Positions 15,589 through 62,595 of a stretch of 64,000 nucleotides of DNA are shown here, piece after piece (position 1 is the first letter of the stretch; every line of letters starts with the position of its first letter). The translations under genes were made by a program, and so were the position numbers. The notes under the pieces were generated by a model, which was not told where the DNA came from, made no database searches, and saw only the letters and a program-made list of their open reading frames with translations. Source of the DNA: Nitrosopumilus sp. (lineage in GTDB: Archaea; Thermoproteota; Nitrososphaeria; Nitrososphaerales; Nitrosopumilaceae); the NCBI GenBank assembly GCA_965205675.1, contig OZ242186.1, positions 288,001 to 352,000 of the forward strand, given 5' to 3'.

Positions 15589-16999
15589 GTAACTGTCTAG
15601 AGTTTTGAAGTAAAATCTCCAAGATATTCTAAAGAATAATCATGAAAGTTTAATCCTCGTAATCTGCATGTCTCCTTTATACTCATCAGTATCTTATGAG
15701 AATCAGCACCATGAATGGTTCTATGACCGTTTGTAATTTTACGAATTATCACATTTGGTCTGATTGCCCTCTCTGCTGTGTTATTGTGTGAATCAGTTCC
15801 AGTAATTAGGAATGTAAAAAGCATTTTTCTCTCACGTTTCAATCTTTTTACAAACCTGATACAGTTTTTCTCTGTGTATTTTTTTGATATGATGTGATTA
15901 ATTCTCCTTTCAAGATTCTTTTTTGCATGGATTCTTTCTGATTCTGATTTTATTTTTGCCACACCATGAGAGTCATAAATTATTTTCTTGAGATTCTTGG
16001 CAAATGGTGCAAATTCTGGTCCGGGATTCTTGTGATTAATGGTATCATTAACCTCTCTGAGATAATGGATGTGACATTTCTGGTGAGTGCTTCCAACATG
16101 GTTCCATGCAGGGTACGAATCACTTGTAATGTTGCCATCATATCCCTTGAGAATTCTCTTGGGAACATCCATTGAACGTGATTTGTCAATCTCGTAAATT
16201 ACAGTCCATTTACTCACAAATGCCCACAACCAGTGGTTCTGGCCATCTACCCTCCAACTTGTCTCATCACCATGTATGTTTAGATCTTCTTTTAACTCCA
16301 CAATCATTGTATCATATCTGCTCCCAAATGCTTTTGATACTATTGATACTGCATGATTAATTGCAGATTCTGTAATGTGCAGTGAGAAGAGCATCTGCAA
16401 AAGATGAGATATTTTACCATACGATAATCCGATAGTTTTCAGTGATATGATTAGCACCATGAGCCTAATTCCAAACCTTTCATTTGACAGTACAGTGTGA
16501 ATGTTACCCGAGATTTGTTTTTTGCAGTTTGTGCAGTATCGTCTAACTATCGTATATTTTGTCACAACTGCTTTTGCAGGAATGATGTCTTCTACTATTC
16601 TGGTGTATGAATCAGTTGGTTCTGAGAGTGATTTGCCACATGTGTTGCACTCTTTTTGGTCAACTGTAATGGCATCATCAATGTGTGTTTGTCTGCTTCT
16701 GCTTTTTCTAGGATGTCTTGATGTTTTCTTCTTTTTTGCAGTTTCAGTCTTGTTTGGTTTTGCTTTGATATTTCTTGCAACAAGTGTAGACACTGTTTGT
16801 TTTAGTTCTGCAATTTCTCTGTGTAGTGATTCAATATCTTTGCGTAACTGACGGTTTTCTTGCTCCAGCGAGTGACATCTGTTACGATAATATTCCAGCT
16901 CATCATATACTGACAATTGTATATTGTAATTTGTCACTGATCAGAAAAGATATAGATAAAAAATATTAAAGAAAGTACTTCAAAACTCTAGACAGTTAC
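15589..16999 (-). mobile_element. IS66-family element, copy 2; intact transposase 15597-16937
   Basis: Same 1411-bp length and TIRs as copy 1; own 8-bp TSD TTTGGAAG (15581-15588/17000-17007). Confidence 0.95.
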
Positions 17000-17309: not shown

Positions 17310-17431
17310 GGAGGAGTAATCAAGCCTGGCCAAAGTAAGTACATTGTGCTTTTGGACATGCAGGACTTAAGATCAAATAATGGGTGATCCTGTCTCTCAG
17401 GAGTTCGTGGGTTCAAATCCCACCTCCTCCA
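17310..17431 (+). tRNA. tRNA-Leu(TAA) with two introns (D-arm ~17336-17357; anticodon loop 37/38 ~17372-17386)
   Basis: Removing both inserts gives GGAGGAGTAATCAAGCCTGGCCAAAGATGCAGGACTTAAGATCCTGTCTCTCAGGAGTTCGTGGGTTCAAATCCCACCTCCTCCA, a normal type II tRNA. Confidence 0.88.
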
Positions 17432-17432
17432 C

Positions 17433-17819
17433 TTATCTTGGATTTTTGATTCCTCTAGCGTTTAGAACTTCATAAACATCTGGTAATGAGAATACAAAAC
17501 CAACATGGACACAATCTTTCTCATCACAGAGCTGACAAAACAATTCGCCTTTTTGAATTGCAACTTCTGCAATTCTATCTTTGATATTGTCTTTTAGAAC
17601 AACACGATCATCATCTACTGAAATCTTTTCAATCTTTGGAGCGTATCTTGCAAAGGTTTTGTCCTTTTGCATCATCTCCTCTAACATGTAAGTTACATAA
17701 CCTGCAAAACTATTGACACCCTTCATTGTTAGGTCATCTTTACTCTTTTGATAAACCTCGTGGAATTTATCATAAACAATTTCTGAAACAGTGATTGATT
17801 TGAATCCAGCTTTTGGCAA
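17433..17819 (-). CDS. Small protein with RHH-like N-terminus and C-terminal CxxC-x4-CxH Zn site; putative regulator
   Basis: KSITVSEIVYDKF...SFAGYVTYML resembles RHH; CQLCDEKDCVH is SWIM-like. Confidence 0.8.
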   Translation of the reverse strand: MPKAGFKSITVSEIVYDKFHEVYQKSKDDLTMKGVNSFAGYVTYMLEEMMQKDKTFARYAPKIEKISVDDDRVVLKDNIKDRIAEVAIQKGELFCQLCDEKDCVHVGFVFSLPDVYEVLNARGIKNPR

Positions 17820-17833
17820 TTTACTTTCCCTTA

Positions 17834-17851
17834 CCGTACTATACAGTACGG
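17834..17851. promoter_or_regulatory. 18-bp palindromic operator candidate CCGTACT-ATAC-AGTACGG
   Basis: Perfect 7-bp arms between a minus-strand TATA (TTATATA, 17855-17861) and the TTG start at 17819; 16/18 match at the radA start. Confidence 0.7.
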
Positions 17852-17935
17852 GAGTATATAATGTTTTATTTTAAAACAGCGTCTGCTGACTCGATGAAAA
17901 TTAGTCTTTATAGAATACCATAGTCCAAAAGCACT

Positions 17936-18829
17936 ATGGGAAAAGGCTATTCCACTGAAGAGATTAGGGAGAAACTAATTTCAATTTTAGCTGATGATGT
18001 CTCTGGAATGTCTGGTGTTGAAATTTCTGAAAAAATTGAAATCAATAGAGTCACCATGTCAAAGTATCTCAAAGTTTTTGCAGCAGAAGGATTGCTAAGA
18101 CAAAAAAATATAGGAAATGTTACTTTGTGGTTTTTAGAACCTGGACAAGAATCATTTAATTTCCCTGATGATTATTTCAAAATCGCATCACAATATCTTG
18201 AATATCTAGTTAAAGGTACTGAAGACCAAGTCTATTCTTTAATTCGTAACTGTTTGCATTCTGGAGGTATTGCTAATCGATTGGTACTAGAAGCAATTTT
18301 TCCATCCATTAAACATGTACAGAAATTGTATGATGATGGTAAAATTGGAACATCTGAACTAAATTTACTGATGAATACCATTTCACAATCTCTCCAAATT
18401 TTTAATCAAATTCAAGTTGTCTCTGATCCAAAAAAGAATATAGTAGTAATTGCATCTGATGCCCAAAGCCGATTATCTTCTGAAGCAGCTTCTGCTGTTT
18501 ATCATTCTGATGGTTGGAGGGTTTCTCATTTAGGTGATATGTCATCTGCAATCAATGTACTCTTTGATCTTGATTTTCAAAAATTAATTGGCAAGATATG
18601 GAAACAAAAACCTGGCATTTTGGTTGTAGTGATATTCGCTCAAACTGATGAAGGTTTAAACTTTTTTGCAGACTCTATAAACCCAATAAAAGAGAAATCT
18701 GGCAAACAAATGAAATTGGCTCTTTGTGGCAAGGTATCTAAAAAATCCAAAATTGTTTCTGATCTGATCTCTGAGAAAATTGAAGATATTTTACAATGGT
18801 CTCAAACGATATCTCAAAATTTGAAATAG
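17936..18829 (+). CDS. HTH transcriptional regulator with B12-binding-like C-terminal domain
   Basis: N-terminal wHTH (GMSGVEISEKIEINRVTMSKYL), four-helix cap and Rossmann-like domain (GWRVSHLG). Confidence 0.75.
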   Translation: MGKGYSTEEIREKLISILADDVSGMSGVEISEKIEINRVTMSKYLKVFAAEGLLRQKNIGNVTLWFLEPGQESFNFPDDYFKIASQYLEYLVKGTEDQVYSLIRNCLHSGGIANRLVLEAIFPSIKHVQKLYDDGKIGTSELNLLMNTISQSLQIFNQIQVVSDPKKNIVVIASDAQSRLSSEAASAVYHSDGWRVSHLGDMSSAINVLFDLDFQKLIGKIWKQKPGILVVVIFAQTDEGLNFFADSINPIKEKSGKQMKLALCGKVSKKSKIVSDLISEKIEDILQWSQTISQNLK

Positions 18830-61313: not shown

Positions 61314-61381
61314 TCAATACAGAGAAGATCCACCTAAGACCCAACAGAACCCTCAAACAATAGCCTTATAAAGTACTAGTA

Positions 61382-61399
61382 CCGTACTATACGGTATGG
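61382..61399. promoter_or_regulatory. Operator candidate CCGTACTATACGGTATGG overlapping the radA start
   Basis: 16/18 identical to 17834-17851; just downstream of TATA box TTATAAAG (61366-61373). Confidence 0.7.
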
Positions 61400-62595
61400 T
61401 AGAAGATTTAAGATTAGATAGTTTAGAGGGCGTAGGTCCTGTAACTACAAGAAAATTATCCGATGCAGGTGTCCACAACGTCATGGACCTCATCGTTAGA
61501 GGTCCTGTTGAAATTGCAGACATTACTGGAATGGAAAAGGATACTGCTGAGAAAATTGTCAATAAAGCCCGACAGCATTTAGTTGAAGGTGGATTAATTG
61601 CTAAAGATTTTGTTAGTGCAAGTGAAATTTACAAGTATAGACAAAGTATTGGTAAAATTACAACTGGTACTAATTGTCTTGACACTCTCTTTGATGGGGG
61701 TATTGAGACTCAAGCATTAACTGAAGTTTATGGAGAATTTGGTTGTGGTAAAACGCAATTTGCACACACCATGTCTGTAATGGTTCAAAAAAGTAAAGAA
61801 GAAGGTGGACTTGGAGGTTCTGTTTTATACATTGATACAGAAAACACTTTCAGACCAGAAAGAATTGTATCTATTGCTCAAGCACATGACATGGATCCTG
61901 AAAAAGTTTTAGATAATATCATAGTAGCCCGTGCATACAATAGTGCACACCAAGTACTAATTTTAGAAGAAGCTGGTCCTGTAATTGAAGAAAACAATGT
62001 TAAACTAATTGTTGCAGATTCTGCAGTAGGTCTATTCCGTGCTGAATATCTTGGCAGAGGAACATTATCTGTAAGACAACAAAAACTAAATCATTTTGTT
62101 CACTTGTTGTCTAGAATTGCAGAAACGTACAACTGTGCTGCAATTGCAACTAACCAAGTTATGGCATCCCCTGATGTCTTCTTTGGCGATCCAACTCGTC
62201 CAATTGGAGGAAATGTAGTTGCACATACAAGTACCTATAGAATTTACTTTAAGAAATCAGGTAAGAAACGAATTGCAAGAATGGTAGATAGTCCTCATCA
62301 TCCTGAAGAGGAGGTAATCTTTGCTCTAGGTGAAGCAGGAATTGTAGATCCTGAAGAAGTCGAGAAAAAGACCAAAAAAACTACCAAGAAAGCAGATGTT
62401 AAAAAAACTACCAAGAAAGCTAAGGAATCTGAGGTAGAGGCTACAGTAGAAACACCTGAGGTAGAGGCTACAGTAGAAACACCTGAGGTAGAGGCTACAG
62501 TAGAAACACCTGAGGTAGAGGCTACAGTAGAAACACCTGAGGTAGAGGCTACAGTAGAAATCGAATCTGATGATCTCGATCCTGTAGAAGAGTAA
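61396..62595 (+). CDS. radA: DNA repair and recombination protein RadA with repetitive acidic tail
   Basis: HhH N-terminal domain, GEFGCGKTQ, YIDTENTFRPER, ARAYNS, PIGGNVVAH. Confidence 0.98.
   Translation: MVEDLRLDSLEGVGPVTTRKLSDAGVHNVMDLIVRGPVEIADITGMEKDTAEKIVNKARQHLVEGGLIAKDFVSASEIYKYRQSIGKITTGTNCLDTLFDGGIETQALTEVYGEFGCGKTQFAHTMSVMVQKSKEEGGLGGSVLYIDTENTFRPERIVSIAQAHDMDPEKVLDNIIVARAYNSAHQVLILEEAGPVIEENNVKLIVADSAVGLFRAEYLGRGTLSVRQQKLNHFVHLLSRIAETYNCAAIATNQVMASPDVFFGDPTRPIGGNVVAHTSTYRIYFKKSGKKRIARMVDSPHHPEEEVIFALGEAGIVDPEEVEKKTKKTTKKADVKKTTKKAKESEVEATVETPEVEATVETPEVEATVETPEVEATVETPEVEATVEIESDDLDPVEE
62429..62560 (+). repeat. 27-bp perfect tandem repeat, about 4.9 copies (EVEATVETP)
   Basis: CTGAGGTAGAGGCTACAGTAGAAACAC repeated without spacers. 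Confidence 0.95.

Follow-up and report, generated by a model that had tools for sequence, protein, structure and literature searches.

A Nitrosopumilaceae-wide double-dyad element on the promoters of radA and a few small regulator genes, with an RHH protein as candidate binder

Ammonia-oxidising archaea are among the most abundant microbes of the ocean and soils. To our knowledge, the lineage is without LexA, has no genetic system and is a group in which almost nothing is known of gene regulation. How the gene of the central recombinase, radA, is controlled in such organisms is the question raised by two loci in the stretch of Nitrosopumilus sp. DNA studied here. The genome is a single contig of 2.01 Mb with 33.7% G+C, and the window, meaning the whole stretch of 64,000 nucleotides that was analyzed, corresponds to its bases 288001-352000. 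A first-pass annotation of the window had reported an 18-bp palindrome in the promoter of a gene for a 128-aa protein and a second, imperfect copy over the start of radA. It had suggested that the protein may be an autoregulated repressor of radA in an SOS-like circuit.

The promoter element and its sites in the genome

Both copies of the palindrome are present, the first between a TATA-like box and the TTG start codon of the 128-aa gene and the second, with two mismatches, over the radA start (Table 1); 100 dinucleotide shuffles gave 0 matches to the palindrome. The 13-mer TACCGTACTATAC is the same at both loci and occurs four times in the genome, in all four cases directly 3′ of a TATA-like box. 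Aligning these four sites with a fifth, palindromic site revealed the underlying structure, TACNGTA-N3-TACNGTA, which consists of two 7-bp dyads with centers 10 bp apart, the whole being its own reverse complement. This unit, referred to below as the operator, lies two bases to the left of the palindrome at both loci. An alternative reading of the same bases as a period-5 GTA array was replaced, as the double dyad alone gave a clean genome-wide signal. The exact form is found six times in the present genome and in none of five third-order Markov simulations. Sites with one mismatch are at chance level (four in the genome versus 4-5 simulated), and only the exact form therefore carries signal.

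Table 1. Features of the window and of the rest of the genome (window positions unless marked otherwise)
Feature	Position	Strand	Remarks
446-aa transposase-like ORF	15597-16937	-	
tRNA-like gene	17310-17434	+	
128-aa gene	17433-17819	-	TTG start at 17819; ORF list
Operator of the 128-aa gene (site 2)	17832-17848		exact match in genome scan for TACNGTA-N3-TACNGTA
18-bp palindrome CCGTACTATACAGTACGG	17834-17851		CCGTACT-ATAC-AGTACGG; outer CC/GG unique to the present genome
TATA-like box TTATATAC of the 128-aa gene	17854-17861	-	by sequence reading; putative promoter role
Palindrome CCATAGT-N8-ACTATGG	17919-17940		over the start of the HTH/B12-like gene
HTH/B12-like gene, 297 aa	17936-18829	+	winged-helix and weak B12-binding_2-like; divergent from the 128-aa gene
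TATA-like box TTATAAAG of radA	61366-61373	+	by sequence reading
Operator of radA (site 1)	61380-61396		TACCGTA-CTA-TACGGTA; exact match in genome scan
Two-mismatch copy of the 18-bp palindrome	61382-61399		overlaps the radA ATG (61396)
radA, 399 aa	61396-62595	+	NCBIfam PRK04301 498 bits (cut-off 259); Pfam Rad51 293 bits
27-bp repeats in radA	62429-62560		4.9 perfect copies (TRF)
Single-unit candidate	genome 396780		
136-aa paralogue of the 128-aa protein	genome about 427860-428270 (L066:1361-1771)		
Gene B, 114 aa, winged helix (site 3)	genome 897600-897941	-	ATG abuts operator as in radA
Single-unit candidate	genome 986750	+	
Single-unit candidate	genome 1162451		
Site 6, mobile-element island	genome 1251162-1251178 (L064:2963-2979)		after a TATA-like stretch; no clear ORF downstream
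35-aa C2H2 ORF (site 4)			C-x2-C-x13-H-x3-H; followed by a 504-aa coiled-coil gene
trpE, then trpG (site 5)			TrpE-arch 486 bits (cut-off 512); sole chorismate-binding enzyme of the genome
822-aa DEAD/DEAH helicase	L003:3492-5960	-	

In every case, the element begins 0-6 nt 3′ of a TATA-like box and ends at the start codon or at most about 12 nt before it. At the 128-aa gene (TACCGTA-CTA-TACAGTA, or TACTGTA-TAG-TACGGTA in gene orientation), the TATA box lies 5 nt before the operator and the TTG 12 nt after it, and at radA the final A of the operator is the A of the ATG. Since archaeal TATA boxes are centered near -26, the element would, judging from its position in the sequence, span the initiation site. 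Known archaeal repressors that sit at the initiation site block polymerase recruitment, and we propose that the double dyad is a repressor operator placed between the TATA box and the transcription and translation start.

The remaining sites extend the picture well outside the view of the first-pass annotation. Gene B lies about 590 kb from the 128-aa gene. The 35-aa C2H2 ORF is divergent from a Na+/H+-exchanger gene, and trpE is divergent from a small ORF with a CxxC..CxH motif ('znf'). A gene for an 822-aa DEAD/DEAH helicase ends beside the znf/trpE operator region and is without an operator of its own; it carries the MrfA zinc-binding domain (Pfam MZB, 32.8 bits) and may be a repair helicase. 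The sixth site may drive a small RNA or be a relic; its surroundings are gene-poor, with a 557-aa integrase-like ORF alongside. In this genome, the regulon consists of a single recombinase, tryptophan synthesis and three or four small proteins that bind nucleic acids. As radA is the only repair gene among the six sites, the suggested SOS-like circuit is not supported.

Scans for one-mismatch and single-unit sites in the genome gave no convincing further targets. The single-unit scan near TATA boxes returned three extra candidates (Table 1). At one of them (genome 986750), a single TACAGTA is followed by TGG-ATG as at radA, before a 100-aa ORF (MDDYEIAILLQAY...) that, from its sequence context, could be a weak target. 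A look-alike 13-mer, TACCGTACTTTTC, is part of an IS-type repeat and irrelevant to the operator. The repeat, at least 100 nt long, is present in 15 copies, from which the IS family looks active; a transposase-like ORF is also found in the window. As a separate observation on radA, the repeats at its 3′ end encode (ATVETPEVE)n, and the length of the RadA C-terminal tail differs between relatives (open frames of 330-431 aa).

Conservation across the family

The family set comprised 121 genomes from 27 genera, with the unpublished G077, G092 and G093 included in the tallies, and conservation was scored as an exact operator within 60 nt upstream at the 30 best orthologous loci per gene. The 121 genomes hold 356 exact sites, compared with 40 for a reversed-pattern control. 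Outside the family (80 genomes from 13 other families of the order), 8 sites were found against 13 in the control, which is background. The operator is exact at 29 of 30 loci for radA (a gene present in 113 of the 121 genomes) and at 30 of 30 for B (present in 101). The 128-aa gene, which is present in 116 genomes and in all 27 genera, has the exact form at one locus of 30 and a single mismatch at the other 29, always at position 5 of the TATA-side unit. Its TATA-like box is kept as TTATATA or TTAAATA across the 30 orthologous upstream regions, and that of radA is conserved in 29 of 30. Throughout, TAC and GTA are invariant while N and the spacer vary (10 distinct 17-mers at radA and nine at B), the pattern expected of a protein-contacted site.

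The search pattern proposed by the first-pass annotation, CCGTACN6GTAYGG, recurs upstream of radA at 27 of 30 loci. At the 128-aa gene it is found at one locus of 30, that of the present genome, and this rules out its register as the conserved unit. A second palindrome, CCATAGT-N8-ACTATGG, over the start of the HTH/B12-like gene was not kept in relatives and was taken as chance.

Five complete genomes from five genera have 3-4 exact sites each, versus 0-1 for the reversed control, located at radA in five of five, at B in four, at trpE in four and at the C2H2 gene in four located cases. The operator in these relatives was thus found at radA, B, the C2H2 gene and trpE, and not upstream of several repair genes. 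In more diverged orthologues, B retains an exact operator in 12 of 15, the other three promoters having a 4-bp spacer, a single unit and an unresolved start, and of 19 diverged genomes, 14 have the start-side unit intact at the promoter of the 128-aa gene. In the genera without B (g13, g18 and most of g2), radA keeps the first dyad only. Single genomes carry the operator at other places as well, including one beside an RFC-like gene and, in G061 (L180) and G100 (L177), upstream of ORFs with N-termini like the TFB zinc ribbon, all of these labels being assigned by eye. If the latter are truly TFB-like, a basal-factor paralogue belongs to the regulon in some lineages.

These data show a Nitrosopumilaceae-wide element on the promoters of radA and a few small regulator genes. 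That the element is a chance resemblance or the remnant of a repeat family could be argued from the related 13-mer in the 15-copy IS-type repeat. The IS copies share 9 bases only and are without the second unit, the observed counts were not reached in any of the 5 simulations or 100 shuffles, and the conservation of orthologous sites across 27 genera already refutes this reading, to which we assign a negligible probability.

A more substantial alternative is that the element is a core-promoter or initiator sequence marking a class of promoters read by a TFB or TBP paralogue, of which ammonia-oxidising archaea have many. Its fixed distance from the TATA box, its overlap with the presumed initiation site and the TFB-like ORFs with operators in G061 and G100 would fit such a role. 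On the other hand, perfect two-fold symmetry with 10-bp phasing is a hallmark of dimeric binders and not of asymmetric initiation complexes, the BRE, where TFB is known to make contact, is located upstream of the TATA box, and the spacing between element and TATA box in fact ranges from 0 to 6 nt. We consider a promoter-class element very improbable and pursue the operator reading below.

Candidate binders of the operator

The RHH-like N-terminus and the CxxC-x4-CxH site that had been read in the 128-aa protein are both present in the alignment, the model and the structure comparison. The protein has an N-terminal RHH (residues about 2-60) and a C-terminal beta/alpha domain of roughly 70 residues with the motif C95-x2-C98(C or D)-x4-C103-x-H105. 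Among 58 aligned sequences, C95 and C103 are invariant, H105 is kept in at least 90% and position 98 is C or D. The N-terminus MPKxGFKSITVxExVY is conserved, with the strand MPKxGFKSITV kept in the 58 sequences down to 25% identity. The family is large, as 559 representatives (50% identity) match the protein at E<=0.001. Pfam and NCBIfam hold no family for it and no RHH model matched at E<=1, and 0 of the 58 members matched any Pfam family at E<=0.01. Public names of near-identical proteins are 'hypothetical protein' and, twice, 'predicted CopG family antitoxin'.

The AlphaFold2 model (pLDDT 90.6) has helices at residues 13-32, 38-58, 104-110 and 113-121 and strands at 63-68, 72-77, 82-89 and 92-95. 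With residues 2-60, VIA-align placed about 40 RHH structures in the top 44 rows (Z 4.0-6.7, rmsd 1.6-3.8), led by ParB of pCXC100 (3no7; Z 6.7, rmsd 1.9, 51 aligned) and including TraM, NikR, PutA, CopA, AmrZ, omega, Arc and SvtR. Since every structural Z is below 8, the assignment of the modeled N-terminus to the RHH fold is moderate, that is, good but short of certain. Foldseek with the whole model found nothing in the PDB at E<=0.001, and a profile search against PDB sequences gave only rows with E of at least 0.23, the sole RHH row being 3no7 (E 2.1). In one ESM Atlas neighbour cluster, RHH_1 is annotated on 11% of members, which we treat as a lead only. For the C-terminal domain, VIA-align returned no convincing match, the best covering rows being unrelated proteins (Z 3.8-3.9). 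A two-copy complex prediction scored 0.17 against a mark of 0.42 and weighs neither for nor against a dimer.

The family also has a 136-aa paralogue in this genome (23% identity; Table 1), adjoining a 355-aa integrase-like gene and a 53-aa RHH-like ORF. The promoter of this paralogue carries a different operator-like array of three TTACAAC/GTTGTAA heptads about 11 bp apart.

The best candidate for the binder is the 128-aa RHH protein, an assignment from sequence that we hold tentatively and rate a little short of an even chance. One RHH dimer would bind each 7-bp dyad, reading it through a two-stranded beta ribbon, and two dimers would sit 10 bp apart on the same face of the DNA as a tetramer, where they would block recruitment of RNA polymerase. 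By analogy with known RHH-DNA structures, a unit that is itself a dyad would be better matched to a beta ribbon of two-fold symmetry than to one recognition helix. The protein would regulate its own gene through a deliberately weaker copy of the operator with one fixed mismatch, and its C-terminal Cys/His domain could be a zinc site or a sensor whose metal or redox input sets the affinity for DNA. The regulon, specific to Nitrosopumilaceae, would comprise radA, trpE(G), the C2H2 and 504-aa coiled-coil genes, B and the 128-aa gene.

Several observations favor the RHH protein. All 30 close orthologues have the element on their own promoter to within one mismatch. In two other families, where B is absent, orthologues with 54-65% identity have retained TACGG or GTAC repeats in the interval from TATA box to start, with 10-bp spacing in one family; radA in these two families has no such repeats. 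Two B-less genomes, G110 and G061, retain 4 and 5 exact operators, respectively, at orthologous promoters. In G033, also B-less, the radA operator and that of the 128-aa gene share the changed unit TATGGTA, and at radA the change is a symmetric pair (TACCATA-TTA-TATGGTA). In this genome (L153, C42:3300-4000), about 236 bp separate radA from the divergently oriented 128-aa gene next to it. The RHH protein is present in the B-less genomes of g13, g18 and g2 and in G110, G061 and G033, in G110 only as a 57-aa RHH-only frame.

Other observations count against it. The exact operator tracks B, with at least two sites in 99 of 101 B-positive versus 5 of 20 B-negative genomes. The RHH family occurs in 56 of 80 genomes outside Nitrosopumilaceae, where the exact operator is at background, and g13, g18 and most of g2 keep the RHH N-terminal strand, yet their radA has one dyad. 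The operator of the RHH gene is imperfect while that of B is perfect, Pfam RHH models give no score and all structural Z values are below 8. In G110, the reversed control is high (3) and the 128-aa gene is rearranged. The rearrangement (L136, C1:607300-608300) is a tandem partial duplication that includes the promoter; copy 1 stops after 57 codons, with the RHH only, and copy 2 has a 4-nt deletion past the start and a TAA. The radA operator of this B-less genome has decayed.

The correlation with B raises the alternative that B itself is the binder and the RHH protein merely one of its targets. Each 7-bp unit would then receive one recognition helix of a B dimer, and B would control its own gene and act as a repressor of radA, trpE, the C2H2 gene and the 128-aa gene. 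Public names for B are 'hypothetical', 'DUF4364 family', 'predicted transcriptional regulator' and 'ArnR1-like winged helix', and its Pfam matches are all below cut-off (DUF4364 19 bits, HTH_45 15 bits). Its predicted structure is of high confidence at residues 40-110 (pLDDT 87-94) and of low confidence in the first 38 residues, an extension, and shows a three-helix bundle with a beta-hairpin wing. Foldseek matched it to 4hw0 (E 7e-4, TMt 0.62) and 4rs8 (TMt 0.73), followed by many PadR, MarR and ArsR rows. The C-terminal 75 residues can thus be modeled confidently as a winged helix like that of Sso10a-2, AspA, TubR and PadR, and its resemblance to these dimeric DNA binders (Foldseek E 7e-4 and weaker) speaks for this reading.

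So does the operator on the promoter of B, exact in all 30 close and in 12 of 15 diverged orthologues. B is also confined to the family as the exact operator is (19 of 20 sampled genomes inside, against 3 weak matches in 80 outside), and in genus g2 both B and a full radA operator are present in G001 but absent from G028, G052, G071 and G089. However, relatedness among the genomes makes them non-independent, so that few events may underlie the correlation, and a palindromic half-site has no reason under a model of one helix per unit. G110 (one contig, 99% complete) is without B even at E<=1 and has no remnant at the syntenic place; even so, its C2H2 and znf promoters have retained exact operators, in which N and the spacer differ from those of relatives. 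G061, also without B, has its exact sites at radA, znf and three further promoters, with 0 in the control. As regulons turn over while factors persist, sites kept without a factor weigh more heavily than a factor kept without sites. Overall, we regard B as sole binder as rather unlikely.

Neither the RHH protein nor B alone fits all genomes, which leaves room for another factor or a shared site. Here the binder would be the C2H2, znf or HTH/B12-like protein, or RHH and B acting jointly or in competition. In G110 and G061, too, the operator is found at the C2H2 and znf genes, although a single 35-aa finger is unlikely to bind a double dyad with high specificity. The HTH/B12-like protein had been named earlier as an alternative binder; its gene does lie divergently next to the RHH gene, an arrangement that is conserved (at a distance within 3 kb in 27 of the 34 genomes that were compared manually), but it is without an operator of its own and is present in 117 of 121 genomes regardless of operators, including operator-less ones. 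A different or shared binder seems unlikely to us.

Returning to the RHH protein, the suggestion that it is an autoregulated repressor of radA is supported as far as the conserved operator-like element at both promoters, the RHH fold and the conserved Cys/His site are concerned. The part that names it as the binder is weakened, as the phyletic distribution of the exact operator is followed more closely by B.

Relation to known systems and physiological meaning

Compared with LexA and the SOS response, the likeness is that a recombinase gene and the gene of a candidate regulator share one operator. The difference is that there is no LexA-type fold and only one repair gene; Pfam and NCBIfam scans of the 128-aa protein and B gave no LexA/S24 self-cleavage domain. 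A further comparison is with the RHH repressors MetJ, Arc, CopG and omega of bacteria, plasmids and phages. The 128-aa protein likewise has an N-terminal strand and two helices, its operator repeats a short unit at intervals of about a helical turn or less, and an operator in its own promoter implies autoregulation. Met boxes are a small palindrome repeated in tandem, as with the TACNGTA unit, and unit spacing is 8 bp for MetJ and 7 bp for omega, versus 10 bp here. Unlike these repressors, the protein has an extra C-terminal Cys/His domain and no Pfam RHH score, and its gene is a chromosomal core gene of an archaeal family and not a plasmid or toxin-antitoxin gene.

NikR shares the arrangement of an N-terminal RHH (1q5v; Z 5.7, rmsd 1.7, 46 aligned) followed by a domain with metal-type ligands, and by analogy the 128-aa protein may work like NikR, with metal occupancy tuning its binding to DNA. 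Its C-terminal domain differs in having four strands and then two helices and not the ACT-like fold; no Pfam match to NikR_C and no ACT-like domain was found in the protein. NikR half-sites are two turns apart, whereas here they are adjacent. For B, the known relatives are PadR, AspA and Sso10a, with which residues 40-114 share the fold and whose dimers bind palindromes. B differs from them by its 38-residue N-terminal extension and its sub-threshold Pfam matches.

Among archaeal chromosomal RHH proteins, aCcr1, a cell-cycle repressor of Sulfolobales, acts on a small set of promoters through the 7-nt box AGTATTA (PMC9976892). The likeness extends to the chromosomal RHH and the 7-nt box. According to the same text, aCcr1 differs in being RHH-only, in belonging to another order and in its cell-division targets; its box is not described there as a double dyad, and radA is absent from that text (PMC9976892). 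In the main texts covered by our literature search, the operator, the protein family and radA regulation in these archaea are not described. RHH repressors with tandem short operators are already known; the novelty lies in the domain architecture, lineage and regulon. The RNA sequencing runs, which are kept as contigs, contain a fraction of just 0.05-0.07 of the sampled words.

In a broader proposal, the RHH protein would have evolved in ammonia-oxidising archaea as a master repressor that senses metal or redox state and, bound to the double dyad as a dimer of dimers, ties homologous recombination (radA), tryptophan synthesis (trpEG) and a cascade of three small DNA-binding proteins to a single signal. 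This is possible, although on the doubtful side. If true, Nitrosopumilaceae would have their first defined transcription factor-operator regulon, with the protein standing in functionally for the missing LexA. The pairing of radA with trpE and small zinc-finger genes is unexpected and may point to a physiological cue, for instance cell cycle, redox or metal. An exact, testable operator is now in hand, together with targets conserved in 27 genera and two candidate regulators that are small and soluble; a single binding experiment could establish the first regulon of the group, and such an identification would show how radA is controlled without LexA.

The Cys/His site and the HTH/B12-like neighbour are hints to the signal, to be taken as leads only. 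The neighbour has a Pfam match to B12-binding_2 just under the threshold (22.6 bits, cut-off 23) and matches to several HTH families, and its near-invariant promoter, on the strand of the 128-aa gene, reads GGTATTGTATAAAGACTAATTTT. On the other side of the 128-aa gene lies a tRNA-like gene missed by ARAGORN, its 3′ end reaching the stop codon of that gene, which is on the opposite strand. The sole Rfam match, in the tRNA clan, is sub-threshold (tmRNA model, 24.6 bits against a gathering cut-off of 47). With acceptor-stem halves GGAGGAG...CTCCTCC on either side of about 125 nt, the sequence suggests an intron-containing, long-arm tRNA.
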